64,000 nucleotides of DNA from Candidatus Iainarchaeum sp. Lineage in GTDB: Archaea; Iainarchaeota; Iainarchaeia; Iainarchaeales; GCA-2688035. The stretch lies in contig JAFCCL010000001.1 in the NCBI GenBank assembly GCA_017610205.1, positions 81,883 through 145,882 on the forward strand, in the 5' to 3' direction. How positions within the stretch are numbered: position 1 is the stretch's first letter; each line of letters opens with the position of its first letter. Shown piece after piece: positions 15,795 to 41,462 of this stretch. The position numbers and the translations under genes are program-made. Below the pieces are notes generated by a model. The model was not told the origin of the DNA. It saw only the letters and a program-made list of their open reading frames with translations, and ran no database searches.

Positions 15795-15796
15795 GT

Positions 15797-18336: not shown

Positions 18337-18369
18337 TTTTTCACTTCCAAAACATATATATCCTTTTTT

Positions 18370-20447: not shown

Positions 20448-20470
20448 AAAAAAACCATCTTTTTGCCTGT

Positions 20471-21406
20471 TTAGGTATCTGCAAACAGGTGATATACTCC
20501 GTGGTGGAATTTGTCTTCCGCAATCATTTCGTCAATAGTTCTTTCAAATCTTCCCTGTTCTGAAAGAACATTTTTTGAAAGGATTTTTTTAGAAAATTTT
20601 AGTATATCCATTGATTCCCAAACCACCAGGCATTTGCGAACGCCGTGTTTTTTCAAAAGCCTGTAAAACTCCTTTGTTTTTTCCACTCCCAAAAAATCAC
20701 AATGTACTTCAATAAACAGCTGAAGATGTCCTGTTTCCTTAAAAGTTTTTTTCATTCCTTTCAGTATCTCAAATTCGTATCCTTCAACATCCATTCTTAC
20801 AATATCTGGAAGCCGTTTGTCTTTGAGAAAAGAATCAAGGGTAGTAACTTCAACAGGAACTGTTTCCCCTGTTTGATCCAAATCAATATTTTTGCAAAAG
20901 GTTGACAGGTTTGATTGCTTTGAAACAAAAATATCCTGCTTTCCGTTCTTGTCTCCAACAGCTTTGTTAAAAACCTCAATGTTTTTGTAATTATTTGCAT
21001 CAATGTTTTTCTTCAGCAACTCAACATTTCCAATAATTGGTTCTATTGCGTAAACTTTTCCTTTTGGGCCAACAGCCTTTGCTTCCATTAGCACATAATA
21101 GCCAATGTTTGCTCCAATGTCGGCAATAACCTGTCCTGATTTCAGCCTTTTCTGGAATTCAACTGTTGCATGAGCTTCTCGTATTCCATTAAGGTATAAT
21201 TCTGATGAAAGCCCTTTGTCGTCTCTTATGTTAAGAAATATTTTGCTTCCCTGCACGTCTTTTAAGACAAAATCCTCTCTATGTCTCATTTTTGCAATTG
21301 CCATTTTTATTCCTGTAACACCTCGGTCAGCTTTTATTAGCATAATTTTTATTCCTCGTTGAATAAAAGTTGCAGGGCTGTCTTCTAAAAGTCTACTCCA
21401 ATTCAA
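20471..21406 (-). CDS. FkbM-family SAM-dependent methyltransferase
   Basis: VIADIGANIGYYV...VYAIEP motif typical of FkbM (Methyltransf_21). Confidence 0.7.
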   Translation of the reverse strand: MNWSRLLEDSPATFIQRGIKIMLIKADRGVTGIKMAIAKMRHREDFVLKDVQGSKIFLNIRDDKGLSSELYLNGIREAHATVEFQKRLKSGQVIADIGANIGYYVLMEAKAVGPKGKVYAIEPIIGNVELLKKNIDANNYKNIEVFNKAVGDKNGKQDIFVSKQSNLSTFCKNIDLDQTGETVPVEVTTLDSFLKDKRLPDIVRMDVEGYEFEILKGMKKTFKETGHLQLFIEVHCDFLGVEKTKEFYRLLKKHGVRKCLVVWESMDILKFSKKILSKNVLSEQGRFERTIDEMIAEDKFHHGVYHLFADT

Positions 21407-22872
21407 TCTTCTCTCCTCCTCTTTGATTTTACAACATACTTTATAAATGTCTTTCCTCCCTTCACTAATCTTGGTATTTCGCTTGGTTGTGTGACTGCCT
21501 GCAGTGCTTTTCCCATCATATAACTTGGTCTGAAATAAAATTCTTTTCTTGCTCTGTCACACCATTCAACCATTTCCTTGTTTGATAGTTCGGGCATTGA
21601 CACCATGCAATTATGCCACCCGTTTTCGTCAATCCACTGCCTAAAATCTTCTGATACAAGATGTCCTTTTTTTCTAAAATGTTCGTATGAAGCTGTTCCT
21701 GGATAAACCATAATTGGAAAAAATTGTGCTGAATCTGGGTTTAGTCTTTTTGCAAGTTCAATTGTTGCCCTGATTGTTTCTTTATTGTCCCCTGGGTTTC
21801 CAACCATAAAACACCCGTGTACAAGAACACCTGCTTTTTTTGCATCTTTTATAAATTGTTCCATTTTTGGAACAATTGTTCCTTTTGAAACATTGTTTAA
21901 AATTTCCTGGCTTCCTGATTCAAATCCAACACACAAAAGCCTGCAGCTAGCTTTTTTCATAAGTTTTAATGTTTCCAATGGCACATCAGCCCTTGCATTG
22001 CAGCTCCACTTTACTTTTATTCCTGCTTTTATTTTTTCTTTGCAAAAATTGTCAACTCTTTTGTGGTCTGCAGTAAAGGTGTCGTCTTCAAGGAAAACCT
22101 CTTTTATTCCTGGAAAGCTTTTCACAATAAATTCAAATTCTTTTATTACATTTGCAATGCTTCTTTTTCTGTAAGGACCTGGGTTAAGGTTCTGCACCCA
22201 GTTGCAAAACTTGCAGTTAAAAGGGCATCCTCTGCCTGTAACAATTGCAACCTCTGGATAAAGATTGGCACTATAAAAATAATCCTTATAATTCAAATGC
22301 TTTTTGTAAACCCTGCTGACAAAAGGCAGTTTGTCAAGGTTTTTTATTTTTTCCCTTAACTTGTTTTTTACAATTTTTGCACCTTGTTTAAATGCAATTC
22401 CTTTAACCTTTGCAAGCTTTGGCTTTTTCTTCTCCAGTTCTTTTGCCAACGCCCTTAAAGTGTAATCGTATTCCTGCATGCACACTGCATCAATTGCTTT
22501 GCTCATCTTCATTGTTTCAACAGGCAAAGCACTTACGTGTGTGCCAACCAATACTCCAAAGCACCTGTGGGCTTTCTTTACCTTTCGCAAAACTTCGACA
22601 TCATTGTGGATGCTTGCAGTGCTTGTATCCAACACCACCATGTCTGGTTTAAATTTTCTTACAATTGCAAGCACTTTCTTTTCGCTTAAAGGAATGGCTG
22701 GTGCGTCAACAAGCTTTACTTCGTGTCCTGCTTTTTCCAAAACGCCTGTGGCATATGCAAGCCACATTGGATAATAGATTGTTCCGCCTTTTGTAACGGC
22801 AGGCGACCTGCTGCTCCTGCTATACTTTGGAAAGAACGGGGGATTTAACATTAAAATTCGCATGAAATTCAC
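21403..22872 (-). CDS. B12-binding domain radical SAM protein (class B radical SAM, probable methyltransferase)
   Basis: An N-terminal cobalamin-binding-like domain and a GRGCPFNCKFC radical SAM cysteine motif. It overlaps the FkbM gene by 4 nt. Confidence 0.8.
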   Translation of the reverse strand: MNFMRILMLNPPFFPKYSRSSRSPAVTKGGTIYYPMWLAYATGVLEKAGHEVKLVDAPAIPLSEKKVLAIVRKFKPDMVVLDTSTASIHNDVEVLRKVKKAHRCFGVLVGTHVSALPVETMKMSKAIDAVCMQEYDYTLRALAKELEKKKPKLAKVKGIAFKQGAKIVKNKLREKIKNLDKLPFVSRVYKKHLNYKDYFYSANLYPEVAIVTGRGCPFNCKFCNWVQNLNPGPYRKRSIANVIKEFEFIVKSFPGIKEVFLEDDTFTADHKRVDNFCKEKIKAGIKVKWSCNARADVPLETLKLMKKASCRLLCVGFESGSQEILNNVSKGTIVPKMEQFIKDAKKAGVLVHGCFMVGNPGDNKETIRATIELAKRLNPDSAQFFPIMVYPGTASYEHFRKKGHLVSEDFRQWIDENGWHNCMVSMPELSNKEMVEWCDRARKEFYFRPSYMMGKALQAVTQPSEIPRLVKGGKTFIKYVVKSKRRRED

Positions 22873-23606
22873 TTTTCTTTTTTGCTTAGTTTCTTGGTTT
22901 CCAAATTTGCATTCAAAAGGTCTTCAAAGTCTCCTGCGTCAAGCCAGTTGCCTTTGAGTTTTGCTGCTGAAAGTTTTCCTTTTTCAAGGAAATGCCTTTG
23001 CACGTCGGTTATTTCTGTTTCGCCTCTTGCACTTGGCTTTATTCCCCTAATTGCTTTGAACACGCTTGGATTCATAAAATATATTCCAATAATTATGTTG
23101 TTGCTTGTGGGCTTTGCAGGCTTTTCAATTACTTGAGTAACTTTTTCTCCTTCAACATCTGCAACCCCGCTTTTTTTTGCCTCTTCTGTTGTTCCTTCGT
23201 ACAAAAGAATCTGCATTTCTGAATCTCCTTTTTCAAATTGTTCTGCAAATGGTTTCAGGCTTTCAAAAACAATGTTGTCTCCATTAATTGAAATAAATTT
23301 ATCGTCTCCGACAAAATCCTCTGCCAAAGAAATTGCGCTTGGAATTCCTCCTGCTTCATCCTGAACCCTGTAAGTGAATTTTACTCCAAAATCCTTTCCT
23401 GAACCCAAATGTGAAAAAATGTCTCCTGCATGGTATGTTCCTGTAATAATCAGAATATCTTTTACTCCTGCACTTTTAAGCATTTCAATCGGGTAATAAA
23501 TCATTGGCTTGTTGTAAACAGGCAAAAGATGTTTATTTGTTGTAAGAGTCAAGGGGCGTAAACGAGATCCTGTCCCTCCAGCAAGAATTACTCCTCTAAG
23601 TGTCAT
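22869..23606 (-). CDS. Sugar-1-phosphate nucleotidyltransferase (glucose-1-phosphate thymidylyltransferase-like, short form)
   Basis: GVILAGGTGSRLRPLTLTTNKHLLPV signature; 245 aa. Confidence 0.8.
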   Translation of the reverse strand: MTLRGVILAGGTGSRLRPLTLTTNKHLLPVYNKPMIYYPIEMLKSAGVKDILIITGTYHAGDIFSHLGSGKDFGVKFTYRVQDEAGGIPSAISLAEDFVGDDKFISINGDNIVFESLKPFAEQFEKGDSEMQILLYEGTTEEAKKSGVADVEGEKVTQVIEKPAKPTSNNIIIGIYFMNPSVFKAIRGIKPSARGETEITDVQRHFLEKGKLSAAKLKGNWLDAGDFEDLLNANLETKKLSKKEK

Positions 23607-24550
23607 TAACTTAACCTCCTTTTTATTTCAAGATATTTTGTATATTTTCTATCTAAATAATATGAGGGGTTTGAATAAAGCCAATCAAAAATTTTGATTG
23701 CTTGAAATCTTCCCCTATATCTTAGAGCAAAGTGATTAGTTAGTTTTGTATTTCTTGTTAATTTAGTCTTTCTTAACTCTAAATATTTCATCAATTGTAA
23801 TTGAATTCCTGTTAAAAGTTCTTTTGTTCCAACTATCTGAAAACATGGTGATTGTGTTTTTTCATCAAACAAAAGACTTCCGTCTCCTTCAAATATCCCT
23901 TGAATAAAATTTTTTATGATTTTTTCATTATAGGTTTCTTTAATTAATTTAGGAAATTTAATTTTAAGACTTTTATTTTTGACTATGCCATACTCTTTAA
24001 GTTTGCTTACAATTTTTTTACTTGTTATCTTTAGATGCATTTGTTCATATTCTTTACCTGTTTTTTCAAGTTTTACCGTTACCTCATAAACAGGCCCATT
24101 GTATTTGAGTAACTTTTTTATTTTTTGAATTATATCTGAATCTTTTTTTGATACTTTTATACCAACGCTTATTGCATTGCCACATTTATTAACAAATCCA
24201 TTGCTTGCAAGCCAACCTAATATCCATGCATTTAAGGGATTTAACTCTTCAAAAAAATTATCGTTCACCGAATACTTTCGCTTATGAATTTTCCATGTTT
24301 TTTCTTTAGCCTTTAAACCATACTTTTTCATTCTATGACTTATAACCCATTGAGAGGTTCCCAATTCGCTGGCTATATCTTGTTGAGATTTATTTTTCTC
24401 AAAATATTCTTGTTCAATAAATTCTTTGCTGATATCATATTTTTTAGGCATGTAATAATCAAAGTTTATCCCTTTAAAGACGCTTTCTAAAGAGTAGGTT
24501 TCCGGTGATTTGTTGTCTCCTTCTTCTACAAATAATTGATTCAATACCAT
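23606..24550 (-). CDS. Free-standing LAGLIDADG-family homing endonuclease-like protein with N-terminal HTH
   Basis: It has two LAGLIDADG-type motifs, NAWILGWLASNGFV (degenerate) and KNFIQGIFEGDGSLLF (canonical GxxxGDGS). An N-terminal helix-turn-helix-like segment precedes them. The gene is markedly more AT-rich than its flanking genes. Confidence 0.6.
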   Translation of the reverse strand: MVLNQLFVEEGDNKSPETYSLESVFKGINFDYYMPKKYDISKEFIEQEYFEKNKSQQDIASELGTSQWVISHRMKKYGLKAKEKTWKIHKRKYSVNDNFFEELNPLNAWILGWLASNGFVNKCGNAISVGIKVSKKDSDIIQKIKKLLKYNGPVYEVTVKLEKTGKEYEQMHLKITSKKIVSKLKEYGIVKNKSLKIKFPKLIKETYNEKIIKNFIQGIFEGDGSLLFDEKTQSPCFQIVGTKELLTGIQLQLMKYLELRKTKLTRNTKLTNHFALRYRGRFQAIKIFDWLYSNPSYYLDRKYTKYLEIKRRLS

Positions 24551-24849
24551 AAAATTGATCGCCTCTTAGTGGTTCTAAAGTATATTGCAAAAAAAGTACC
24601 GAGAATTGAAACGAAAACAAATCCTTGCAAAAATTGAATAGCCCAGTGTGGATAAACATAAGTTGCATTTACTAAGAAATAATTTGAATTAATTAGATCA
24701 AGAATGAAAAAAAAAGAAAGTCCAATTAAACACAATCCAACGACTGCTAAAGTTTTTTTTGGGTCCGTCCATGTATACTCAATTGCTTTTACAAATAACT
24801 GTTTAATAATAATTATTTTTTCGTTTGAGATTATTTTTTCGCCCTTCAT
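24541..24849 (-). CDS. small hypothetical membrane protein (2 predicted TM helices)
   Basis: 102-aa ORF that is AT-rich and adjacent to the HEG. I recognise no family. Confidence 0.3.
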   Translation of the reverse strand: MKGEKIISNEKIIIIKQLFVKAIEYTWTDPKKTLAVVGLCLIGLSFFFILDLINSNYFLVNATYVYPHWAIQFLQGFVFVSILGTFFAIYFRTTKRRSILWY

Positions 24850-24993
24850 TTGTACAAATTCCCCTCTTTTTTTAGAAAAAAATTGGTCTGCAATTTATAG
24901 TATATATTGTATTTATTTCCTCCAAACCTTCATTATAAAGGCTTTGGTACAGTTTTGGAAAACGACCTTAATTAACAAAAAAGAGCCACAATT

Positions 24994-25959
24994 TCAAGTT
25001 TGCTTGATTAAAGGCTTCCACCAGGCTTCGTTTTTTTTGTACCATTCAACTGTTTCTTTCAAACCTTTTTTGAAATCTGTTTCGGCTTTCCAGCTCAATT
25101 CCTTTTCAATTTTTGAACAGTCGAGGCTGTAGCGCAGGTCGTGTCCCAACCTGTCCTTAACTTTTTCAATCATTTCGTCGCCCTTGCCTAATTCTGCAAG
25201 AATCATTTTTGTAAGCTCGATATTCTGCAACTCGTTTCCGCCGCCAATGTTGTAAACTTCTCCAATCTTTCCCTTTTCAAGTACTGTATCAATTCCGCTG
25301 CAGTTGTCTAAAACAAAAAGCCAGTCACGAACATTCTTTCCCTCTCCATACAATGGAACTTTTTTGCCTGTAATGATGTTTGTTACAAAAAGCGGAACAA
25401 TTTTTTCAGGAAACTGGAAAGGACCATAATTATTGCTGCTTCTTGTTACAAGAACAGGCAATCCATAGGTTGTAAAATAGCTCATTGCAAGAAGTTTGCC
25501 TCCTGCCTTTGCTGCACTGTAAGGGTTTCTTGGGTTTAGCTTGTCTGTTTCCTTAAAGCTTCCTTCTGCAATTTGCCCATAGACTTCGTCTGTTGAAATC
25601 TGAATAAATTTTTTAACATCCTGTTTTCTTGCCTGTTCGCACAAAACTTTTACTCCAAAAAAATTTGTCCTTGCAAATGCATCCGAATCCTCAATTGACC
25701 TGTCAACATGGCTTTCTGCAGCAAAATTTATTACTGTTTCACATCCTTCCATTGCTTTTTTCACATCGCTAGGATTGCAAATGTCTCCTTTGAAAAACGT
25801 GTAATTTGTGTTGTTTTCAATGTCCTGAAGGCTTTCCTTTCTGCCTGCGTAAGTAAGCTTGTCAAGGTTTACAATTTGGTCTTCTGGAAATTTTTCAAGG
25901 CGTTGCCTGATATAATTACTTCCAATAAAGCCACAACCTCCTGTTACAAGAATCTTCAT
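24994..25959 (-). CDS. rmlB: dTDP-glucose 4,6-dehydratase
   Basis: MKILVTGGCGFIGSNYIRQ... and full-length RmlB-like similarity. The start is taken at the ATG at 25959; the ORF track extends to a TTG at 25971. Confidence 0.85.
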   Translation of the reverse strand: MKILVTGGCGFIGSNYIRQRLEKFPEDQIVNLDKLTYAGRKESLQDIENNTNYTFFKGDICNPSDVKKAMEGCETVINFAAESHVDRSIEDSDAFARTNFFGVKVLCEQARKQDVKKFIQISTDEVYGQIAEGSFKETDKLNPRNPYSAAKAGGKLLAMSYFTTYGLPVLVTRSSNNYGPFQFPEKIVPLFVTNIITGKKVPLYGEGKNVRDWLFVLDNCSGIDTVLEKGKIGEVYNIGGGNELQNIELTKMILAELGKGDEMIEKVKDRLGHDLRYSLDCSKIEKELSWKAETDFKKGLKETVEWYKKNEAWWKPLIKQT

Positions 25960-25961
25960 AA

Positions 25962-26038
25962 ATTCCACCAATTCCTTTTATCAATAACTCCTGTTAATTT
26001 TTTTGTCAATAAATTCCACTAATTCCTTTTATCAATAA
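25962..26038. repeat. Two copies of a 28-nt direct repeat (AAATTCCAC[CT]AATTCCTTTTATCAATAA) in the rmlB / radical-SAM divergent intergenic region
   Basis: The copies lie at about 25960-25988 and 26010-26038 with one mismatch, separated by a T-rich spacer. Confidence 0.4.
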
Positions 26039-26061
26039 TTGCATGAAATTTATATATATCG

Positions 26062-26123
26062 TTTGGTGCAATCCTCAAAGCCAGGCCGCCTGCAAAGGTT
26101 TTAAAACATCTCTTGAATTATTT
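26062..26123 (+). promoter_or_regulatory. Conserved 62-nt leader/promoter copy 1 (TTTGGTGCAAT...AAAGGTTTTAAAAC BRE/TATA) upstream of B12-radical-SAM paralog 1
   Basis: Near-identical to 27697..27758, with about 4 mismatches. It contains the TATA-like TTTTAAAA preceded by an A-rich BRE-like stretch. Confidence 0.4.
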
Positions 26124-26157
26124 CTCATATACTTATTAACTCAGGATTTGTTTGAAT

Positions 26158-27672
26158 ATGCAAAAAAAGCAAAAAGTTGTACTTTTTTTACCAAAAGCAA
26201 GAAAGCACACATTTCACGGAACTTTGCCTGTTGCCTTGCTTAAACTTGCTTCAATGGTTGACAGAAAAAAGTTTGATTTGGATTTAATTATTGCAAAACC
26301 AAATGTAGATTATGAAAAGCAGGTGGTTGAAGCATCCAAGGGTGCTATGTGTGTTTGTTTAAGTGTTCTGACTGGTAATGATATTACTAATGCATTGACG
26401 ATTACAAAAAAAATCAGAGTTGTTTCAAAGGCTACTGTTGTTTGGGGTGGCTGGCATGCAAGTATTTTTCCAGAGCAAACTCTTGAGAATCAATATGTTG
26501 ACATTGTAATCAGGGGACAGGGGGAAAGAACTTTTCAAAAGCTAATTGAACGTCTTGCTGAAAAGAAAAGCCTAAAAGGATTACTTGGTGTTTCCTACAA
26601 AGAAGGGGGAAAAATTAAGCGCAATGAAGACCGGCCTTTTGAGGACATAAACAATTTTCCGCCAATTTCCTACAATTTAGTTAATTTAGAAGATTATATT
26701 TCAACCTTTAATGGAATGCGTGGCATGGTTAGTTTTACCAGCCAGGGCTGTCCTTTCAACTGCAAATTCTGTGCAGAGCCATTGGTTTACAAACAGCAAT
26801 ATTCTGCGCTTTCAAATGACAGGATTCTTGACGAATGGGAATTTTTTGTTAAGGAACATAATATTAAGTTTGTTGGAATTACTGACGACAATTTTTTTGT
26901 TAATGAAGCAAAAATAATTGACTTTTGTCAAAAGCTTCTTAAAAGAAAGCTTGGAGTAAAATGGGGCAAGGCTTGTGGAAGGGTTAGACAAATGCTTGCG
27001 TTCAAAGACAGCACTTGGCAGCTTATTGCCGATGCAGGTTGTATGGATATTGAAATTGGAGACGAAAGTGGAATTCAGAGCACTCTTGATTTTATTAACA
27101 AACAGTTGTCTGTTGAAGAAATTGTGGAATTTACAAATAAATGCAGAAAGTATGGTTTTGAGGTAATGCACAATTGGCTTTATGGAATTCCTTTGCCTCA
27201 GTTCAAAACAATGAACAAAAAGGAAATTAATGCCTGGATTTGGAAAGAGTGGCTTGCAATGTTTGATGTAATGGATAAATGCCACCACAAATACAAGGAT
27301 TATGATGAAGTTAGAGTTTGTCCATACTATCCCTATCCTGGAAATCCACTCTTTGACCTGTCATGCGAGCTTGGGTTCAAACCGCCAACAAAGCTTGAAA
27401 ACTGGGCTAACCTCAAACCAGCTATATGGCTTGATGACTCCTGGAATGACAAGCGAAGAATGCTTTTGCATTTTATTTTTCCATATGCATCGGATTTTTA
27501 TGCTGAAAGGCACATGAAAAAATTTAGGCTGGTTCAAAGATTTTTCCACGAAACAGCAAAGTTTAGGTGGAAGTACAGATATTTTGGATTTCCATTAGAC
27601 TACAGGTTGTATGAGTTTTACACCAATTTCAGAATGAAAATCACAGGCGTTTCTGCAACTGAGCACGATTAA
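26158..27672 (+). CDS. B12-binding domain radical SAM protein, paralog 1
   Basis: SQGCPFNCKFC radical SAM motif and an N-terminal B12-binding-like domain. It is about 60% identical to the downstream paralog. The start is taken at the ATG at 26158. Confidence 0.8.
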   Translation: MQKKQKVVLFLPKARKHTFHGTLPVALLKLASMVDRKKFDLDLIIAKPNVDYEKQVVEASKGAMCVCLSVLTGNDITNALTITKKIRVVSKATVVWGGWHASIFPEQTLENQYVDIVIRGQGERTFQKLIERLAEKKSLKGLLGVSYKEGGKIKRNEDRPFEDINNFPPISYNLVNLEDYISTFNGMRGMVSFTSQGCPFNCKFCAEPLVYKQQYSALSNDRILDEWEFFVKEHNIKFVGITDDNFFVNEAKIIDFCQKLLKRKLGVKWGKACGRVRQMLAFKDSTWQLIADAGCMDIEIGDESGIQSTLDFINKQLSVEEIVEFTNKCRKYGFEVMHNWLYGIPLPQFKTMNKKEINAWIWKEWLAMFDVMDKCHHKYKDYDEVRVCPYYPYPGNPLFDLSCELGFKPPTKLENWANLKPAIWLDDSWNDKRRMLLHFIFPYASDFYAERHMKKFRLVQRFFHETAKFRWKYRYFGFPLDYRLYEFYTNFRMKITGVSATEHD

Positions 27673-27696
27673 AACAAAGTTGTTTTATCTTAAGAC

Positions 27697-27758
27697 TTTG
27701 GTGCAATTCTCAAAGCCAGGTTGCCTGCAAAGGTTTTAAAACATCTCTTGGATTATTT
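27697..27758 (+). promoter_or_regulatory. Conserved 62-nt leader/promoter copy 2 upstream of B12-radical-SAM paralog 2
   Basis: Duplicate of 26062..26123. Confidence 0.4.
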
Positions 27759-27794
27759 ATGCTATTGAATCACTTTTTTTTGGGTTTGACTAAT

Positions 27795-29312
27795 ATGCCG
27801 GTAAGACAAAAAATAATTCTTTTTTCTCCAAAACCAAGAAGACATACTTACAGCAACAGTATTCCTGTTGCATTGCTCAAAATTGCGTCAATGATTGACC
27901 GTAAAAAATACGAATCGGTAATTGTTTCAGCAACACCAAAATATGACTACGAAACCCAGATTTTGAAGGATTCAAAAGATGCATTGTGCTTTGCTGTTCG
28001 CGTGTTAACAGGACACGACATAATTGAAGCAATAGAGCTAATAAAAAAAATCAAAAAAGTTAACCCAAACCTTCCTATTGTATGGGGTGGATGGCATGGT
28101 GCAATTTTTCCAGATCAAACTCTTGAAAGCAGCTATGCTGATATAATTATAAGGGGTCAGGGTGAGCGCACTTTCAAAGAACTTGTTGAAAGGTTGGTTA
28201 CAAAAAAAGATCTTAAAGGATTACCAGGCATTATTTACAAAGACAAAAGCGGAAAAATAATTCACAACCCTGAAAGGCCTTTTGAAGACATAAATAATTT
28301 TCCGGACATTCCCTACGATCTCATTAACATAGACGATTACGTTGACAACTTTGACGGTTTGCGTGCGGCATTTTATGTCACAAGCCAAGGCTGTCCTTTT
28401 AAATGTAAATTTTGCGCGGAACCACTTGTATTCAAGCAACGATGGTCTTCCCTAAGCAACGAGCGCATTCTCAAAGACTGGGAATACCTTTCAAAAAAAG
28501 GCATTGAATTTATCATAATTGGTGATGACAACTTTTTTGTAAACGAAAAAAAAGTCAAAGACTTTTGTGAAAAATTCATTGCAAAAAAACTTCCGTTAAA
28601 ATGGGGCCGTGTTTCTGGAAGGGTTAGGCAAATGCTTGCTTTTTCTGACGAAACCTGGCAGCTTATCAAAGACACTGGCTGTACAGACATACAGGTTGGC
28701 GCAGAAACAGGCGACCAAAATGTGCTTGACTACATTGGAAAAGAGCTTACTGTTGACGAAATAGTGCAATTTATTGAAAGGGCAAGGAAATTCAAAATAA
28801 AGGCAACTCCTGCCTTCATTCTCGGTCTTCCAACAGAGGAATTCAGAAAAGCTTCATCAAAAGAAATTCAAAAACTTTTAGACAAACAGTGGAATGCATT
28901 TTTTGACGTAATGGACAGGTGCTATAAAGACCACAAGGACTATGACGAAATCCGTTTGTTTGCCTACGATCCTTATCCTGGAAACCCACTTTATGATTTA
29001 TCCTGTGAGCTTGGTTTTGACGCGCCAAAAAAGCTTGAAGAATGGGCAATAATTCGACCTGCTCCTTGGATAAAAGAAAGTCTTCGTGAAAAAATAAGAA
29101 TGCTTCAATATTTTTTGTTTCCCTATGCTCGCGATGGTTACGCAGGCAGACACATAAAAAAATTCAAGCTGTTGCAAAAGCTTTTTCACAAAAGCGCACA
29201 ATGGCGATGGAAGCACAGATTCTTTGCACTGCCAATAGAATACAAAATGTACCGGGCTTATACAAACCTTAGAACCAAAAAAACAGGGCAATCTGCAACA
29301 GACCATGAATAA
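27795..29312 (+). CDS. B12-binding domain radical SAM protein, paralog 2
   Basis: SQGCPFKCKFC motif. Its start is aligned to paralog 1 (MPVRQKIILF). It is preceded by the same 62-nt leader as paralog 1. Confidence 0.8.
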   Translation: MPVRQKIILFSPKPRRHTYSNSIPVALLKIASMIDRKKYESVIVSATPKYDYETQILKDSKDALCFAVRVLTGHDIIEAIELIKKIKKVNPNLPIVWGGWHGAIFPDQTLESSYADIIIRGQGERTFKELVERLVTKKDLKGLPGIIYKDKSGKIIHNPERPFEDINNFPDIPYDLINIDDYVDNFDGLRAAFYVTSQGCPFKCKFCAEPLVFKQRWSSLSNERILKDWEYLSKKGIEFIIIGDDNFFVNEKKVKDFCEKFIAKKLPLKWGRVSGRVRQMLAFSDETWQLIKDTGCTDIQVGAETGDQNVLDYIGKELTVDEIVQFIERARKFKIKATPAFILGLPTEEFRKASSKEIQKLLDKQWNAFFDVMDRCYKDHKDYDEIRLFAYDPYPGNPLYDLSCELGFDAPKKLEEWAIIRPAPWIKESLREKIRMLQYFLFPYARDGYAGRHIKKFKLLQKLFHKSAQWRWKHRFFALPIEYKMYRAYTNLRTKKTGQSATDHE

Positions 29313-29384
29313 AAGAAATTAATAAAACAGAAAAGAACAAAATAGGAGTTTACTGATTTTAAATTAGTACATTTTAAATAGTTT

Positions 29385-30635
29385 TTAAATTGGCACATTC
29401 CAAATTATATTTACGAGTATTGGGTTATAGTTTATTAACAACACTATATCAAACAAAAGCATACTGGAAAGAACAATCCAAACAAATGTCTTTGCCCATT
29501 TTTCCTGCCTGATTGTTTTCATAAAAGAAAGTAAACCTGCAATAAAAAGTATTGCGATAAGTCCAACTGTTCCAAACATCCATCTTGCATCAGGTCCTAC
29601 TACAAAAAAATTTATGTATGCAACTCCTGCAAGGTTTAAAAGAATTGGGAGAATAAGAACAGCTGTTATTAGTTTTTTTCTTTTGTTGTTCCATTTATTT
29701 CCAAGAATTAATTTTACAAACCCTATTAGTGCAACAATTGAAACAATTGCATAAAATCCAAAGAAAACAAATCTATATTCAGGAATTGTTGCAGTTCCAT
29801 ATTCCTGAAGCCACATTCCTGCAAATAAATATGTTAAAAAATAAGCAAGCCATTGAATATCAATTGCCATCATTGGCTTTAAAAAGCTTGGGAAAAAATT
29901 CCCCGATAGCAAAAGGTACCTGTAAAACGTGACTATTCCCAGCAATGGTACAGAACATGCCAAAATTCTTTTCCACAATTTTTCTTTTCCCTTAAATAAA
30001 AATACAAACCACGCAATTCCAAATGTTACTGCAACTGCAAGTCCTGTAAGCATCGTAAGTAAAACTCCAGCCATAAAAAGTCCGGCAATTGCCATATCTT
30101 TTGTCTTTTTTTCTTTAAACACTTTAATACTGTAGTATATTACCACTAGGCATAAGAGCCAGCTTAAAGTTCCATTACTGACTGTTGCGCTTGTAATTAT
30201 ATGTGTTGGAAGTAAAGCAACAAACATTGCACTTCCAAGTCTTACAATTTTTCCAAAATTCAGTTTTTTTGCAATAATATATGTTAGAAGAATGCAAGCA
30301 GTTCCAAACGCAACAGAAAGAAGCCTTAGAACATGCACAATAGTGTCAATGCTCTGGCTTGCGATTGGAATGTAAAAAATTGCTGCAATACTATGGAATA
30401 AAGGTGGTTGCGAAAGGCTTTCATTTGAAATGCTTGCAAGAGTTTCGTGTGTAAGCGGAATCATAGGCAGTCTGGCATTGTCTCCAATGAATTCAATGTA
30501 AAAAATATGAGCTCCTTCTTCAGGTCCAGACCAAACAGGAAAAAGTGCACTTCCTGCAAGTCTTAAACCCAACCCAAACAAAATTATAAGGACAATGACC
30601 TTAAATTCATTTTTTTCTCGCAATTTCAAAAACAT
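29385..30635 (-). CDS. GT-C-fold glycosyltransferase (ArnT/PMT-like, GT83/GT39-like), polyprenyl-phosphate-sugar dependent
   Basis: About 10-12 predicted TM helices. The first extracytoplasmic loop motif, SGPEEGAHIFYIE, resembles the DE.RYAE motif of ArnT/PMT. It is a functional analogue of AglS-type enzymes. Confidence 0.5.
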   Translation of the reverse strand: MFLKLREKNEFKVIVLIILFGLGLRLAGSALFPVWSGPEEGAHIFYIEFIGDNARLPMIPLTHETLASISNESLSQPPLFHSIAAIFYIPIASQSIDTIVHVLRLLSVAFGTACILLTYIIAKKLNFGKIVRLGSAMFVALLPTHIITSATVSNGTLSWLLCLVVIYYSIKVFKEKKTKDMAIAGLFMAGVLLTMLTGLAVAVTFGIAWFVFLFKGKEKLWKRILACSVPLLGIVTFYRYLLLSGNFFPSFLKPMMAIDIQWLAYFLTYLFAGMWLQEYGTATIPEYRFVFFGFYAIVSIVALIGFVKLILGNKWNNKRKKLITAVLILPILLNLAGVAYINFFVVGPDARWMFGTVGLIAILFIAGLLSFMKTIRQEKWAKTFVWIVLSSMLLFDIVLLINYNPILVNIIWNVPI

Positions 30636-30687
30636 TCACCTCCACTCAGAACTGAAGTCTTTTTTGAATGCATAATCTTAATCATAT

Positions 30688-30978
30688 CTACGAGTCCTCT
30701 TCAAATTCAATAAAATTACCGCTTTGAATTTTAGCCCTTGTGCTAATGCTTTCCTCTTCAGAATCGCATTTCAGGCGTTCAACTTCAATATTTTGATTAT
30801 ATATACAATCTTCTTTTTTGCCATAACACAAATACCTAGTATTTTTAACATGCCAGCAGGCAAAATTCTCTTCGAAACTGTAGTCAACAGGTCCTTGAAA
30901 CAAAATCAAAAAATCCACTGCAACTATGATTATTAGTATAACAAAAAAACAAATTAATCTAAAAAACTTAACCGGCAT
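30688..30978 (-). CDS. small secreted/anchored cysteine-containing hypothetical protein
   Basis: An N-terminal hydrophobic helix followed by four Cys and an acidic C-terminus. Confidence 0.25.
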   Translation of the reverse strand: MPVKFFRLICFFVILIIIVAVDFLILFQGPVDYSFEENFACWHVKNTRYLCYGKKEDCIYNQNIEVERLKCDSEEESISTRAKIQSGNFIEFEEDS

Positions 30979-31014
30979 TTAATATCACCACGCTCTTTTT
31001 TTCCAAAAAAACAC

Positions 31015-31935
31015 TTACACGTCCTTTTTGAATTTGGCAAAGCATCTTTTAATGCCTTCATCCAAACTAATTTTTGGCTTCCAATCCAATTCCGAACAAG
31101 CTCTTGAAATATCGCACACAAGTCGTTGCACTTCACAGGCTTTGTTAAGGCGATTTATTTCAATGTTGTTTCCAGTTGCCTTTTTAACTTTTTCAGCAAG
31201 GTTGTTTAGTGAAATAACCTTGCCTGATCCAAGATTAAAAATTTTAAATCTGCTTTTGTTAAAACCAGCTGCAATAACCCCGCTTGCAAGGTCTTCTGCA
31301 TGCAAAAAATCCTTTTCAGAGCTTCCGTTTCCATAAATCACAATCGGCTTGTTCCTTAATGCATTAAAAACAAAGTTTGCTATAACACCTGTTCCCTTGG
31401 AAACTACCTGCCTTTCACCATAGCTTGTTGTTGGCCTTAGAATTGCATAATCAATTCCGTAAACTCTGTTAAAGTATTCAATATATTTTTCAATTGCCAT
31501 TTTTGAAACAGCATATGGTGTCATTGGTTCAAGTCTGGCATTTTCTTTTGCCGGAATGGTTTTTGTGTTTCCGTAAACAACAATAGAACTCAAGTAAACA
31601 ATTTTTTTTACTCCAAGTTCACATGAATCCCTCAAAATATTAATGCTTGGCAAAATATTTGTTTCTGCGTCAAAAACAGGCTTTTCAATGCTTGTTCTTG
31701 GAACAGTTGTGTGAATGCAGTGAAAAACATATTCAATTCCATCCAATGCCTGCCTTACATCCTTTTGATTAATGTAATCTCCTTTAACCTTTTCAATTTT
31801 TGTTTCAATTGCCTTTAAGTTGTTCTTGCCAGTAAACTTGTCAAAGACTCTGACATTGCAGCCTTTTGCAACAAGCTTCTCTGCAACAAAGCTTCCAATA
31901 AGTCCGTTTCCTCCTAAAACAAGGCAATTATTCAT
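31015..31935 (-). CDS. NAD-dependent nucleotide-sugar epimerase/dehydratase
   Basis: NNCLVLGGNGLIGSFVAEKL Rossmann motif and an SDR fold over its full length. Confidence 0.8.
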   Translation of the reverse strand: MNNCLVLGGNGLIGSFVAEKLVAKGCNVRVFDKFTGKNNLKAIETKIEKVKGDYINQKDVRQALDGIEYVFHCIHTTVPRTSIEKPVFDAETNILPSINILRDSCELGVKKIVYLSSIVVYGNTKTIPAKENARLEPMTPYAVSKMAIEKYIEYFNRVYGIDYAILRPTTSYGERQVVSKGTGVIANFVFNALRNKPIVIYGNGSSEKDFLHAEDLASGVIAAGFNKSRFKIFNLGSGKVISLNNLAEKVKKATGNNIEINRLNKACEVQRLVCDISRACSELDWKPKISLDEGIKRCFAKFKKDV

Positions 31936-31976
31936 AAAAGTAATAGGACAGCTAAACCCTTATTAATTTTTCCAAA

Positions 31977-32984
31977 CTAAATCGTTATTTTTTTAGGGAA
32001 CAAAAGAGCCTGCGTTGTTCCAATACTGTATGCAATGTGTGTTATAAAAACAATAAAGATGCAAAATGGTACATGAACTGGTTTGACAGAATGCTCAAGG
32101 CAGTCAATTCCAATAGCGGTTGCATAAAACACAAAGCTGGCAGCATAAAAAATCCACAGTATTGGAAACACGATGGCAACAAATGGCATAAAAACAACGT
32201 AAAATAAGAATGCAATTACCACTGTGTTTGTAATTCTAAAAGAATCAGTTTCCTTCAATACATCTATTTTTCCCCTTCCATAATCTTTAAGTCTTGGAAT
32301 GTATTCTGAAAAACTTCTCTTGTTGTGATGGTGCACTGCAGTTTCTTTGTTGTACAGTATAAGCTTTCCTGTTTTTCTGAGTAGGATGCATGCTTTTACA
32401 TCCTCACCTGTTGGGCAATTTTCGTCAAACTTTCCTATCTGAAGTAAAAGGTTTCGTTTTATTATAATGTTGCTTGTTGGCAGTTCCTTGTATACTAGAA
32501 TTCCTTTATGTTTTTTGAAAGTACTATGCATTCCTGTATCTGTTACGTAAAGATGCATAGTTTTTATTGCAAGTGATTCCCAAAGTCCTATGTTTTTTGG
32601 TTCGAGGTTTGGTCCACCGACAGCGGCAACTTTATCATCCCTCAAAAATGGCAATGCACTTTCAAGCCATTTGGATTGCGGGTATGCATCTGAATCAATA
32701 CACGCTATAAATTCAGCTTTTGTGTTTTCAATTCCAATATTGCGTTTTGCTGAAGCAACTCCTTTTGGAAGGTTTTGCCCGGTAGGAATACATCTTATTT
32801 TCTCCGACTTTTTTTTACCAAACTTTTCAACCAGTGCCTGTTTTTCTATTTTGTTGTCTGGTAATAATATTAATTCAAAATCCTGTCTTGTCTGATTCAA
32901 ACAACCTTCAATACATTCCAAAACAAAACTGTCCAATGTCTTAAATGGTACAATTATTGCAAACAAAGGCTTTTTTTCCATCAT
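31977..32984 (-). CDS. GT2 glycosyltransferase with C-terminal TM helices
   Basis: FAIIVPFKTLDSF ... ILLPDN region of the GT2 fold, with a hydrophobic C-terminus. Confidence 0.7.
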   Translation of the reverse strand: MMEKKPLFAIIVPFKTLDSFVLECIEGCLNQTRQDFELILLPDNKIEKQALVEKFGKKKSEKIRCIPTGQNLPKGVASAKRNIGIENTKAEFIACIDSDAYPQSKWLESALPFLRDDKVAAVGGPNLEPKNIGLWESLAIKTMHLYVTDTGMHSTFKKHKGILVYKELPTSNIIIKRNLLLQIGKFDENCPTGEDVKACILLRKTGKLILYNKETAVHHHNKRSFSEYIPRLKDYGRGKIDVLKETDSFRITNTVVIAFLFYVVFMPFVAIVFPILWIFYAASFVFYATAIGIDCLEHSVKPVHVPFCIFIVFITHIAYSIGTTQALLFPKKITI

Positions 32985-34075
32985 TTCCCAACCTGAAGCT
33001 TGAGTCTAATCCATTGAAGCAGAACTTTCAAAAGTTCTGTTGCGTTGAATGCAACATTTGACGTGAGCTGGCATTCAAACGTGCAAAAACATTTGCTTTC
33101 TCTTATGGATTTTGCAATCTTTCTATTTTCTTTTGTTGAAAGCAGTTTTTTCAAATTAAAGTCAAAGTTTTTGAGATTTCCAAGAAAAAGATCCTGCCTG
33201 ATTTCACAGGCAAATACATTACCATTTGAATAAATGATGCAATTTGTTGTAGCAGCATAACATGGTAACTGAAATTTGTTTTCCTTCAAAGTTTTGAGAA
33301 TCACCTGCTTATATCTTTTGTTTAAACATGTATAAAAGTCCCCAAAGATTTGGTGGCCCTTATATTTCTTTTTTGCAAGATCTGTTGCAATTTCTTTGTT
33401 CACTTTCATATATTGTTCAATTGTTTCCTTTGATTTCCTTGCGTTTTTTGGTTCGCCTCTTAAAAAATTTATCTGAAACTGGTTTATATCAAAGTCTGAA
33501 AGCATTTTTTTGTACACAGACATCGTTTCTTGCGCATTGTCTTCACTAATAGTGTAAATTACTCCAATCTTTAGGTTTTTGAATCTTATTTTAAGTTCTA
33601 AAAGCTTTGCTAAAGTTTTGCACGCATTTGAGAATGCATTTTTTGATCCTCTTATTTGATTATGTATTTTCTCAGTGCCATCAATTGAAACTGAAATATT
33701 GAAAATTATATCAGGGTTTTCTTCAGCCATCTTGGTTGCTTTTGCTACAATTTTTTCAGTAAACGTGCCGTTTGTTGGAATTGAAATTATTTTTACACTG
33801 CTGTTTTTTGCAAACAATGCTGCGATTTTGTCAATGTCTTCTCTGAGAAATGGTTCACCCCCTGTTAGACTTACATGTATCAAACTCGGCATGCTTTTTG
33901 ATATTTTTTCAATTTCTTTGAGTGGAATTTCTTCAGGCTTGTTCAGTGATTTGTGAAAAAAACAGTGGCTGCATTTAAGATTGCATCTGCTTGTGATATA
34001 AAGAATCACATAAACAGGAAGCATGTTTTTCTTGAATAAGACATTTTTTGCCTGTTTCAATATTGAAATTTTCAT
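32981..34075 (-). CDS. Radical SAM / SPASM-domain protein
   Basis: YITSRCNLKCSHCF (CxxxCxxC) plus a C-terminal Cys-rich region (CYAATTNC...CEIR...CFCTFEC) typical of a SPASM/twitch auxiliary cluster. Confidence 0.75.
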   Translation of the reverse strand: MKISILKQAKNVLFKKNMLPVYVILYITSRCNLKCSHCFFHKSLNKPEEIPLKEIEKISKSMPSLIHVSLTGGEPFLREDIDKIAALFAKNSSVKIISIPTNGTFTEKIVAKATKMAEENPDIIFNISVSIDGTEKIHNQIRGSKNAFSNACKTLAKLLELKIRFKNLKIGVIYTISEDNAQETMSVYKKMLSDFDINQFQINFLRGEPKNARKSKETIEQYMKVNKEIATDLAKKKYKGHQIFGDFYTCLNKRYKQVILKTLKENKFQLPCYAATTNCIIYSNGNVFACEIRQDLFLGNLKNFDFNLKKLLSTKENRKIAKSIRESKCFCTFECQLTSNVAFNATELLKVLLQWIRLKLQVGK

Positions 34076-35484
34076 AAAAAACCGCCTCTTTTCAACAGCT
34101 TGTTTTTCCTGTTAATAAATTCTCTTTCCATCTTAAGCGACTGCTTGTTTAAAATAACATCAAAACACATTTTCAACACCTTTAGCGGGTGGAAAATTGC
34201 CTTGTAGAGTAGGAACGTAAAGTAAAGTTCTTTAACATATTTATTCACTTCCAAACTGTTTGGATACCATCCAGGTACTGTTCCTATATTTAGGTCGTCA
34301 ATTCCCTTTATATTTTTGTTAAAATATTTTTTCCTAATTTCTGTATTTGGATATGGAATACATGGAAACACACCAACTTCATCCACTCCAATCCTTGCAA
34401 GCCTTTTCAGATATGCCCTTGTCTTCTGTTTATCATCTTCAGTTTCAACTGGTAATCCAACGACAAAGAACGCGGTTGTTTTTATTCCAACATTCTTACA
34501 ATTTTTTATACAATTTGCAATGTTTTCAAGATCAATATGCTTGTTGTAAACTTCTTTAAGGATTCTTTGACTTCCTGATTCAGGTGCAAACACCAACAAT
34601 TTGCATCCGCTTTCTTTCATTAGCTTAAGTGTTTCAAGGTCAAGGTACTCGGATCTTACTCCGTTTGGTGTTGTCCAAGTTATCCTGAGTTTTTTTTTCT
34701 TAATAAGCCTGAAGATTTTTTTTGCTCTCTCAATATTAAGCGTAAGGTTGTCATCTTCTATTTCAAATTCAGTTGTGCCATATTTTTCAATACAATGTTG
34801 AATTTCTTTAACAAAATTTTCTGGTTTTCTTGCAACCCAATGCCTGCGCCAGAATACAGCGCTTGAGCAATAGGTACAATTGTATGGACATCCCCTTGAA
34901 GAAATTATTGGAGTGAATTTTTTGTTTACTGGCCCGTGGCTCCTTTTGGCTTTCCAGTAATTTTCTAATGGAAAAAGATGCCTTGCTGGAAATGGCAGCA
35001 TATCAAGATTTTCAATGAACTCTTTTTTTTCCCTGCTTACAATCTTTCCATTTTTTATATATGCGATTCCATTAATTGCCTCAATTGAACCACTTTTTTT
35101 TGACAGTTTGTCAATAAGTTTTAACAGAGTTTCCTCTGCTTCTCCAAGTACTGCATAGTCTACTCCCTTCTCAAGGAACCTTTTATAATTTGCTGTTGCC
35201 TCGTTTCCGCCAATTATTATCTTTTTTTTCGGAAATCTCTTTTTAAGTCTTGAAACCAGATCAAGATAAACCTTGTGCTGTGAAGTAAAGTTTGCTGAAA
35301 TGCAGATTAATTCACTTTCTTTAGGAATCATTTCGATTAATTCTTCAATATCAAGGCCTCTAAGGAATAATCTGTGTTTCCAATCGCTTACCTTCTCTAT
35401 CCCAAGCCCAAGAGCGTCAATTACCTTTACCTTAAAACCTTTTTTTAGAAGATAGGCTGCAAGGTATGCAAGGCCCAATGGCAT
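34072..35484 (-). CDS. B12-binding domain radical SAM protein
   Basis: N-terminal LGLAYLAAYLLKKGFKVKVID (B12-binding-like) and SRGCPYNCTYC radical SAM motif. It overlaps the SPASM gene by 4 nt. Confidence 0.8.
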   Translation of the reverse strand: MPLGLAYLAAYLLKKGFKVKVIDALGLGIEKVSDWKHRLFLRGLDIEELIEMIPKESELICISANFTSQHKVYLDLVSRLKKRFPKKKIIIGGNEATANYKRFLEKGVDYAVLGEAEETLLKLIDKLSKKSGSIEAINGIAYIKNGKIVSREKKEFIENLDMLPFPARHLFPLENYWKAKRSHGPVNKKFTPIISSRGCPYNCTYCSSAVFWRRHWVARKPENFVKEIQHCIEKYGTTEFEIEDDNLTLNIERAKKIFRLIKKKKLRITWTTPNGVRSEYLDLETLKLMKESGCKLLVFAPESGSQRILKEVYNKHIDLENIANCIKNCKNVGIKTTAFFVVGLPVETEDDKQKTRAYLKRLARIGVDEVGVFPCIPYPNTEIRKKYFNKNIKGIDDLNIGTVPGWYPNSLEVNKYVKELYFTFLLYKAIFHPLKVLKMCFDVILNKQSLKMEREFINRKNKLLKRGGFL

Positions 35485-35534
35485 AGTTGTAACAAAAATC
35501 TGGCTTCCTGGGATTTCTGCAACTGGTGGATTAA

Positions 35535-37263: not shown

Positions 37264-37267
37264 GGTA

Positions 37268-38386: not shown

Positions 38387-38438
38387 TCGTGTTCAGCCCA
38401 AACAAGGTCTTTTTTTCAGCAGATTTTTTCCAATCTTC

Positions 38439-39554: not shown

Positions 39555-39562
39555 TTTATCAC

Positions 39563-40612: not shown

Positions 40613-40672
40613 TTACTATCAATCTATTGGAAAATTCATCTTAAATACCATTTTGGTGCAATATTCAAATTC

Positions 40673-41386: not shown

Positions 41387-41462
41387 ATCACTTTCATTAA
41401 TTTTTTCATTAATTTAAAACAATTTTTCCTTCCTTTTTTTCCAATCAGTTTTGCTTTCTTAT

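Follow-up and report, generated by a model that had tools for sequence, protein, structure and literature searches.

Repeated candidate promoter block upstream of two class B radical SAM paralogs divergent from rmlB in a Candidatus Iainarchaeum surface-glycan cluster

The gene pair, its neighbourhood and its enzyme class

The window (the whole 64,000-nucleotide stretch of the Candidatus Iainarchaeum sp. contig analysed here) contains a surface-glycan gene cluster in which two radical SAM genes, here called gene 1 and gene 2, lie in tandem and are transcribed divergently from rmlB (Table 1). In addition to AglB/STT3, which belongs to the same cluster as the pair, the window encodes a TATA-binding protein (TBP), a tRNA-Thr editing domain and DUF655, which together indicate an archaeal host. 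Both open reading frames are intact (504 and 505 aa) and encode proteins with a B12-binding domain (PF02310, 41.8 and 41.7 bits for gene 1 and gene 2, against a Pfam gathering score of 32.1) and a Radical_SAM domain (PF04055, 44 and 72 bits against 29.5), so that the cobalamin-binding domain expected in the first-pass annotation is found by profile search in both. The motif GCPF[NK]CKFC is present in each, as had been read from the translations, and its cysteines C200, C204 and C207 are invariant across 45 homologues. Gene 1 departs from the consensus at five of 70 highly conserved columns. The two proteins are clearly homologous over their full length, with 55% identity and 76% positives by BLASTP, a lower figure than the roughly 60% identity first estimated.

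The dTDP-glucose 4,6-dehydratase identity proposed for the divergent gene is confirmed by a TIGR01181 score above the cut-off, and the protein is also matched by the Pfam GDP_Man_Dehyd/Epimerase families. Its true start is probably the ATG at 25959 rather than the TTG at 25971 chosen by the ORF finder. In agreement with the first reading, which noted no rmlC or rmlD in the window, neither RmlC nor RmlD was found at a curated cut-off among the scanned ORFs. The downstream part of the rmlB-side transcription unit encodes an RmlA-like nucleotidyltransferase and an HpnJ-like B12 radical SAM protein, and the same gene set adjoins genes of the gene-2 type in three related loci (L003, L010 and L016). 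More broadly, the gene clade is syntenic with SDR and nucleotidyltransferase genes in L003, L004, L009, L010, L015 and L016, which ties it to a sugar pathway.

Table 1. Features of the locus, with positions in the window.
Feature	Position	Strand	Evidence or remark
rmlB-side transcription unit, downstream part	21403..23606	-	
HpnJ-like B12 radical SAM gene	21403..22872	-	TIGR03471 419.8 bits, under cut-off of 577.6
RmlA-like nucleotidyltransferase gene	22869..23606	-	TIGR01208 240.7 bits, under cut-off
rmlB, dTDP-glucose 4,6-dehydratase	24994..25971	-	TIGR01181 448.6 bits, cut-off 365.1; match from residue 6
TATA-like box of rmlB promoter, ATATATATAAATTT (minus-strand reading)	26046..26059	-	3 nt from motif; 15/16 against L003
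Promoter block copy 1 (candidate)	26062..26123	+	58/62 against copy 2; sub-elements kept at orthologous loci
Copy 1, 17-nt motif	26063..26079	+	
Copy 1, spacer	26080..26093	+	
Copy 1, BRE-like AAAGG	26094..26098	+	
Copy 1, TATA TTTTAAAA	26099..26106	+	
Copy 1, ATTATTT element	26117..26123	+	
Gene 1, class B radical SAM with B12-binding domain	26158..27672	+	Pfam; rare divergent paralog lineage
Promoter block copy 2 (candidate)	27697..27758	+	
Copy 2, 17-nt motif	27698..27714	+	
Copy 2, TATA	27734..27741	+	
Copy 2, ATTATTT element	27752..27758	+	
Gene 2, class B radical SAM	27795..29312	+	Pfam; resident orthologue of slot divergent from rmlB
SDR dehydratase/epimerase gene	39563..40612	-	TATA-like box by third motif copy
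Third motif copy, TTGGTGCAATATTCAAA	40653..40669	+	3 nt from TATA-like box of SDR gene
TBP gene	49420..50025		

An AF2 model of gene 2 (pLDDT 92.8) was searched with Foldseek and matched AprD4 (top), TsrM, MgmA, TokK, OxsB and CysS, all with a probability of 1.0, at query-normalised TM-scores of 0.58-0.70 and 15-18% sequence identity to the solved structures. With the pair these enzymes have in common a Rossmann-type B12-binding domain at the N-terminus, a CxxxCxxC-bearing radical SAM barrel and a C-terminal domain made of helices, and the beta/alpha N-terminal domain of the gene 2 model superposes on those of TsrM, TokK and OxsB. They act in antibiotic, cofactor and MCR-modification pathways, whereas the pair studied here lies in an archaeal N-glycan cluster. 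None of the curated NCBIfam families (BchE, HpnJ, HpnR, PhpK, KedN5, MgmA, AprD4, TsrM-type and others) reached its cut-off. The profiles that scored best, those of HpnJ, BchE, ApyD and PhpK, gave 100-135 bits against cut-offs of 481-750 (ApyD 135 against 750; HpnJ 126 against 577.6), which places the pair outside these families. For the GenK/Fom3-type enzymes with which the pair was first compared, the profile libraries and the PDB search returned no match, and the related PhpK scored 74-100 bits against a cut-off of 600. Literature searches on radical SAM enzymes, most of them also on glycans, N-glycosylation or polysaccharides, yielded nothing specific to this clade. The two proteins form part of a class B radical SAM clade, so far uncharacterised, that synteny ties to rmlA and rmlB.

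Cobalamin use by the pair is putative, because AprD4, its closest structural neighbour, shares this fold and is not known to use cobalamin. No simple sequence motif is known to serve as a test for cobalamin binding; in solved class B enzymes the cofactor is bound base-off and no histidine acts as its ligand (PMC13331322). The pair might accordingly be AprD4-like or other radical SAM enzymes (dehydratases, epimerases or ring-rearranging enzymes) with a Rossmann domain empty of cobalamin, rather than cobalamin-dependent methyltransferases, a minority reading to which we give some weight. AprD4 is a radical SAM enzyme that dehydrates a diol on an aminoglycoside sugar, and no cobalamin appears in the title of its entry. 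The distance of all curated methylase families from their cut-offs would suit such enzymes, as would the usual inability of DPANN-type archaea to make cobalamin. Against this stand the Pfam B12-binding scores, the near parity of TsrM, MgmA, TokK, OxsB and CysS with AprD4 in the Foldseek search (E-values of about 1e-20 to 1e-16), and TokK as the best PDB match at the sequence level (phmmer E-values down to 1e-13). By inference from the neighbourhood, the enzymes would modify a 6-deoxyhexose made by RmlA and RmlB, or a glycan built from it, for an N-glycan or surface glycan. The GenK/Fom3-type C-methylation of dTDP-4-keto-6-deoxyglucose first suggested is a hypothetical chemistry for the pair, and for the known C-methylations of this intermediate the catalysts are TylC3-type methyltransferases that use SAM in the ordinary way.

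The block repeated upstream of each gene

The near-identity of the 62 nt preceding each gene, reported in the first-pass annotation, holds on exact alignment, with 58 of 62 positions identical and no gaps. The edges of this block are sharp, and at weaker similarity the repeat can be followed over 82 nt (84%; 26049-26130 against 27684-27765). Aligned by codon, the two genes average 39.5/62 per 62-nt window and reach 49/62 at best, which leaves the block as by far the most alike stretch of the repeated unit. Its 28-nt core occurs only twice in the window and in none of 100 shuffles. A 20-mer of the block gave only three chance matches, in unrelated bacteria, in a collection of other organisms' genome contigs, and a 23-nt block pattern gave zero matches in a collection of other metagenome contigs. 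An assembly chimera was considered as the source of the repeat and judged unlikely, because the longest exact run common to the two blocks is 28 nt and the 24-nt junction between gene 1 and copy 2 is unique.

Each block holds a 17-nt motif, TTGGTrCAATnCTCrAA, followed by a spacer (GCCAGGccGCCTGCA, 14-15 nt, 13/15 identical between the copies), a BRE/TATA-like segment and an ATTATTT element. The BRE/TATA-like reading of AAAGGTTTTAAAAC is plausible, since the core CAAAGGyTTTAAA, 9 nt and ATTATTT are kept in this order before orthologues in four other genomes and a TBP gene lies in the window. The upstream regions of orthologues thus retain both the TATA box and the purine-rich BRE, in a host with TBP. 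Transcription is predicted to start near 26128-26130 and 27764, about 25 nt past TATA, and the block ends about 6 nt short of these positions. The four differences between the copies fall at the N position of the motif, in the spacer (CC/TT) and at the base immediately 5' of ATTATTT, which also varies in orthologous promoters. To the left of copy 2 lies a decayed, minus-facing TATA-like sequence, CTTAAGATAAAA, which faces the 3' end of gene 1 in antisense direction. The arrangement resembles archaeal bidirectional BRE/TATA promoters with an activator or repressor site, in which opposed TATA boxes surround a common conserved site and a BRE-like purine run, TATA and an AT-rich proximal element stand at the expected spacing; it differs in that the whole module is duplicated inside a gene pair.

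Age and origin of the arrangement

Gene 1 and gene 2 were sisters in 0/200 bootstraps. Gene 1 grouped with P0024 in all 200 replicates, and a gene-2 clade was recovered in 153/200, so that the two genes are not mutual closest relatives as in-paralogs would be. Among 5.8 billion proteins, P0024 (70%, partial) is the only closer relative of gene 1 than gene 2, and the sole orthologue of gene 1 (L006/L007) is found in an unrelated context without the motif. Gene 2, which is 55% identical to gene 1, is 63-89% identical to its orthologues elsewhere, including P0121 in L015 (88.7% aa), P0002 (81%) and P0003 (73%). Synonymous divergence between gene 1 and gene 2 is saturated (dS = 1.94), and likewise that between gene 2 and its L015 orthologue. 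The absence of a sister relationship and the saturated dS indicate that the genes are old out-paralogs.

The promoter copies, by comparison with related loci, are young, since the spacer that they share differs even in the closest relative: the upstream region in L015 retains the motif and core promoter around an unrelated spacer that is 58 nt longer. The corresponding stretch in L003 also differs, and the right flank of copy 2 shows only weak similarity (GACTAAT) to the L015 5'UTR. Both L015 and L003 have one gene in the slot, directly divergent from SDR/rmlB genes. A second tandem paralog pair occurs in L016/L017, in reversed order (gene-2 type first), with a partner from another lineage and without an internal promoter. 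In the comparison of single-copy and duplicated states across genomes, suggested at the outset, L015 and L003 are single and L016 has a tandem of different order. The original proposal, in which one event duplicated gene and promoter together, does not hold, given old out-paralogs, young promoter copies with only 4/62 differences, and single-copy L015 and L003. Recombination that placed gene 1, or homogenisation of the promoters, is more likely than a joint duplication of gene and promoter.

We favour, with a probability of roughly 0.6, recombination at the promoter of the resident rmlB/gene 2 pair that put gene 1 behind a copy of the block and under shared control with rmlB. The block would be a copy of the promoter region between rmlB and the resident gene 2, comprising in order the motif, the non-conserved spacer, the radical-SAM-facing BRE/TATA and ATTATTT just 5' of the transcription start. 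Gene 1, an old divergent paralog, lies between the resident promoter and gene 2, which would have regained a promoter through the young second block copy. Such an arrangement most likely arose at the promoter when a circular intermediate integrated by a single crossover, or when crossing-over was unequal; in either case gene 1 would have been inserted with a direct repeat of the block at each end. Each paralog would then be transcribed on its own, yet both would share the control that acts on rmlB and on one or more further sugar-nucleotide genes. The locus resembles the products of Campbell-type integration or unequal crossing-over in that direct repeats of the recombination target enclose the insert, here gene 1, and that relatives show a single-copy empty site. 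Unlike Campbell-type products, the locus has no integrase, att site or mobile-element genes beside the insert, and the mechanism is read from anatomy alone.

The tandem pair in L016 makes it possible that an older tandem state was followed by later rearrangement or gene conversion. Under this rather unlikely alternative, an old tandem pair had its upstream regions homogenised again and again by short-tract gene conversion, and gene 1 was lost through the repeats in genomes like L015 and L003. The L016/L017 pair sits in the same slot, so that tandem arrangements could be of long standing. Conversion and deletion can both act on 62-nt direct repeats, and sharp block edges suit a conversion tract. 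However, L016 has the reversed order, a partner of a different lineage and no internal promoter, independent losses would be needed in L015 and L003, and the only orthologue of gene 1 has neither the context nor the motif of this locus.

An ancient in-place tandem duplication of gene plus promoter, with all block positions held by purifying selection, corresponds to the first-pass view and is improbable. The motif and the BRE/TATA/ATTATTT core are indeed selected across genomes, and the four block differences fall at positions variable elsewhere. Yet the spacer is nearly identical between the copies while replaced in L015 and different in L003, lineages that are single-copy and parted from gene 2 later than gene 1 did, and dS is saturated at either time depth.

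The 17-nt motif and a candidate regulon

The block is a candidate for untranscribed promoter DNA, judged by the predicted transcription start. The word "leader" used for it at first is a misnomer, because the block stops upstream of that start and lacks RNA structure: shuffled sequences are predicted to fold more stably than either copy (z = +1.43 and +1.05), and Rfam found nothing in the block either at gathering scores over the whole window or at E <= 1 over positions 25900-27900. Although the block is conserved before two cofactor-dependent enzymes and could form a small CAGG-N3-CCTG hairpin with the CC/TT difference in its loop, a transcribed cis-regulatory RNA (a leader or riboswitch sensing, for example, SAM or cobalamin) is scarcely credible given these fold and Rfam results, the lack of conservation of the hairpin region in orthologues, the fit of the conserved parts to promoter elements at promoter spacing, and the use of the 17-nt motif by rmlB in the opposite orientation.

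The motif occurs 12 times at two mismatches or fewer, always in intergenic sequence, in 152 kb comprising the window and related archaeal loci, where shuffled sequence predicts 0.3 occurrences. Control loci totalling 597 kb contain it only twice, both times in weak and GC-rich form. A TATA-like box follows 3 nt after the motif in 10 of the 12 cases, and this order precedes rmlB-like genes in L003, L010, L015 and L016. Such recurrence, usually 3 nt from the TATA of rmlB-like or glycan genes, makes the motif look like a regulon element of these genes, probably one to which a putative regulator binds. In literature on radical SAM enzymes and glycans, searched for other questions, we met no description of the motif or its regulator. 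A more speculative and doubtful extension is that the motif is the operator of an undescribed regulator of a surface-glycan regulon in a DPANN-type clade, within which radical SAM paralogs are swapped as promoter-proximal cassettes by promoter-module recombination. If so, strains would vary in the radically modified 6-deoxyhexose on the cell surface, and this variation could bear on host attachment or virus evasion.

The locus does not overturn current understanding. Very little is known of promoter architecture, regulons and glycan chemistry in DPANN-type archaea, and a compact conserved cis-element that joins rmlB, other SDR genes and radical SAM genes could be used as bait for its regulator. 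The clear mismatch between promoter age and gene age would show a paralog being wired into an existing regulon. The small class B radical SAM clade beside dTDP-sugar genes in an AglB cluster is a candidate for new radical sugar chemistry.

Radical SAM pair and glycan cluster

Both genes encode B12-binding and Radical_SAM domains above the Pfam gathering scores, and both contain the CPF[NK]CKFC signature noted in the first-pass annotation (GCPF[N/K]CKFC). Their homology also stood, with the proposed ~60% identity corrected to 55% over the full length (BLASTP). In structure comparison, the AlphaFold model of gene 2 (pLDDT 92.8) resembles AprD4, TsrM, MgmA, TokK, OxsB, and CysS (TM-scores 0.58-0.70); PDB sequence matches are remote (top TokK, 1.6e-13), and neither attained an NCBIfam family cut-off in profile searches. 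Gene 1 departs from five and gene 2 from one of 70 highly conserved columns, all cluster cysteines are kept in both, and both are probably active enzymes. They are linked to dTDP-sugars by a neighborhood kept in six independent loci and by a common promoter motif. Methylation, dehydration, and rearrangement are candidate reactions, with or without cobalamin. AprD4 exemplifies a B12-type radical SAM fold that works without cobalamin, and the C-methylations described for dTDP-4-keto-6-deoxyhexoses are non-radical reactions.

Sequence evidence identifies an archaeal host: encoded in the window are a TATA-binding protein, DUF655, ribosomal protein L10e, and the ThrRS editing domain specific to archaea. 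The named homologues belong to MAGs of the Diapherotrites and Woesearchaeota types. A single large glycan cluster spans ~1..46600, which includes Alg7-like GT4 and Alg13/14-like genes, numerous GT2 and GT4 glycosyltransferases, an RmlA-like gene, bona fide RmlB (TIGR01181, 448.6 bits vs 365.1), and several further SDR enzymes. RmlC and RmlD, previously reported as absent, reached no cut-off among the scanned window ORFs. At the left end of the window, genes for a cytidylyltransferase-GNAT fusion, an SDR, and a PseC-like aminotransferase that exceeds the TIGR03588 cut-off suggest a nonulosonic-acid-type pathway, and an APS kinase adjoining a sulfotransferase suggests sulfation of the glycan. 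Beyond the pair, two B12-domain genes and one SPASM radical SAM gene are present; one of these two B12-domain genes is HpnJ-like (420 bits, under cut-off) and is kept adjoining an RmlA-like gene in comparison loci L003, L010, and L016. A free-standing LAGLIDADG/HTH ORF between the RmlA-like gene and rmlB, accompanied by a membrane ORF, looks like a homing-endonuclease insertion within the rmlB-side operon because both ORFs are missing at the equivalent position of L015 and L003.

Coordinates of features in the window
Feature	Position	Strand	Remark
Gene 1	26158..27672	+	Intact ORF, 504 aa
Gene 2	27795..29312	+	Intact ORF, 505 aa
Block copy 1	26062..26123		
Block copy 2	27697..27758		
TATA box, block copy 1	26099-26106		
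rmlB TATA box	26046-26059	-	
Copy 2 motif and CTTAAGATAAAA	27684-27714	-	
SDR gene	39563..40612		Motif at 40653
B12-domain radical SAM genes (n=4)	21403, 26158, 27795, 34072		Glycan cluster
Further B12-domain genes	21403-22872, 34072-35484	-	
SPASM gene	32981-34075	-	
PseC-like/cytidylyltransferase-GNAT/SDR; APS kinase-sulfotransferase	388-3815 (-) and 8341-9858		Glycan cluster, left end of window
AglB/STT3	44472..46634		Glycan cluster
LAGLIDADG/HTH ORF	23606-24550	-	314 aa
Membrane ORF	24541..24849		102 aa
51-nt tandem repeat	25958-26051		25958-26000 vs 26009-26051, 84%
26-nt tandem repeat	29357-29408		TTTTAAATTAGTACATTTTAAATAGT / TTTTAAATTGGCACATTCCAAATTAT, 77%
Membrane-protein gene	29385..30635	-	

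The repeated block as predicted promoter DNA

The 62-nt blocks upstream of the two genes align without gaps at 58/62 positions, and their flanks on both sides are not alignable between copies. A 28-nt block core has two sites in the window vs none in 100 shuffles. Since 62-nt windows of the gene 1/gene 2 codon alignment average 39.5/62 and reach 49/62 at best, the block stands apart from the remaining repeated unit; the original sequence observation was confirmed as correct and non-random. The copies differ only at the N of the motif, two spacer bases, and the base preceding ATTATTT, which varies among orthologous promoters too.

The term "leader" had to be abandoned, as the block is predicted to be upstream promoter DNA: treated as RNA it folds more poorly than shuffled sequence (z = +1.4 and +1.05), Rfam gave no match to it, and its parts match promoter elements. 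Its 3' half, CAAAGG-TTTTAAAA-N9-(A/G)ATTATTT, recurs with unchanged spacing before the orthologues of L015, L003, L009, and L016, including the CAAAGG-TTTTAAAA core that had been read as a BRE/TATA-like element. Because synonymous sites of these loci are saturated when compared with the window, this conservation reflects selection. Given the position of its TATA box, gene 1 transcription should start at ~26129, immediately beyond the block end, with a predicted, non-conserved 5'UTR of ~28 nt; the gene 2 block has the same geometry.

At its 5' end, the block reads TTGGTGCAAT(C/T)CTCAAA. Searching the window and non-redundant related loci (152 kb) with TTGGTrCAATnCTCrAA (≤2 mismatches) yielded 12 matches of this 17-nt motif vs ~0.3 from shuffles, all 12 intergenic. 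Read on the opposite strand (TTyGArnATTGyACCAA), the motif is followed by a TATA-like box exactly 3 nt past it in 10/12 matches. These pairs precede rmlB-like genes (window, L003, L010, L015, and L016), a window SDR gene, a SPASM radical SAM gene (L004), a GT2 gene (L016), and a radical SAM gene (L010). Control loci around distant homologues in other phyla (597 kb) contained only two matches, each with two mismatches, GC-rich surroundings, and no TATA box. The motif appears to be clade-specific and to have gone unnoticed before.

Because the motif-3 nt-TATA arrangement recurs before rmlB-like genes, the copy 1 motif is predicted to serve rmlB as its upstream promoter element. The TATA box of this promoter is on the minus strand and faces away from gene 1; rmlB is transcribed divergently from the pair, as described earlier. 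The "62-nt leader" is accordingly named here the predicted core of a bidirectional promoter. In copy 2, the minus-facing TATA box survives only in decayed form, CTTAAGATAAAA, 3 nt past the motif; it is similar to the TATA boxes in L015 and at window 40653 (TTTAAGA). Aimed antisense into the gene 1 3' end, it may be a remnant or else a promoter of low activity. In L010, a ~45-nt block (AAAAAGAGnCCTTTTTyGAGCATTGyACCAAGnnTATTTTAACC; 1655-1712 and 3405-3462) is common to the regions upstream of a radical SAM and an rmlB-like gene, and promoter-module sharing may be recurrent in the clade, with L010 as second genome.

Two small repeats lie nearby. The 51-nt repeat, a second local duplication within the rmlB/gene 1 intergenic region, covers the rmlB ribosome-binding region and first ~8 codons, and in its upstream copy, which is decayed, ATG has become ATT. 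The repeat favors the ATG at 25959 over the TTG at 25971 as the true start of rmlB. The 26-nt repeat starts in the convergent gap past gene 2 and enters the 3' end of a membrane-protein gene by ~24 nt.

Ages of genes and promoters, and origin of the arrangement

The proposal that the duplication carried its promoter was not borne out because genes and promoters differ in age. Gene 1 is ~53-57% identical to each gene-2-clade member, and in the protein database only P0024 (70%, partial) is closer to it. Neighbor-joining with 200 bootstraps grouped gene 1 with P0024 in 200/200, recovered the gene-2 clade in 153/200, and never placed gene 1 and gene 2 as sisters; their dS of 1.94 is saturated. In L015, the closest relative found, the radical SAM protein shares 88.7% identity with gene 2 (78.6% nucleotide identity, dS saturated), and the motif (17/18 over TTTGGTGCAATnCTCAAA) and core promoter (26/31) are kept. 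The L015 spacer between them is unrelated, 58 nt longer, and carries a second motif copy. Because the spacer changes completely between orthologues yet is 13/15 identical between block copies, the promoter copy appears to be younger than the L015 split, or the copies were homogenized after it.

The comparison of other genomes recovered single-copy states, and no locus compared outside the window has the gene-1-first order with a duplicated promoter. In L015, rmlB is directly divergent from the gene-2 orthologue without gene 1 between, and L003 is single-copy and syntenic (orthologue 73%). The sole gene-1 orthologue (L006/L007) has unrelated surroundings that lack the motif; L002, from the same sample as L007, holds an 81% gene-2 orthologue in another context again. 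Marine contigs L016 (TARA) and L017 share a strongly syntenic AglB cluster, and their tandem pair differs, with the gene-2 type first and a separate lineage (P0010) 14 nt on, without an internal promoter; the L016 pair (8466-11521) is operon-like. Because the single-copy, window, and L016/L017 states differ, the slot seems to take up paralogs repeatedly.

The window layout is flank-block-(UTR1-gene 1-24 nt)-block-UTR2-gene 2, with a period of 1635 nt. The copy 1 left flank is orthologous to the L003 rmlB TATA region (15/16), and the copy 2 right flank is weakly similar to the L015 5'UTR. This flank-block-gene 1-block-gene 2 layout is the product expected from one crossover at the promoter, which is our favored origin (probability about 0.6). 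The main rival, short-tract gene conversion acting on an older tandem pair, we consider less likely. Purifying selection alone is very unlikely as the cause of the 13/15 identity, since the spacer is wholly replaced in the L015 orthologue and the paralogs are much older. We regard the block as a duplicated bidirectional promoter module and the locus as a tidy, moderately interesting case, not a new kind of system.
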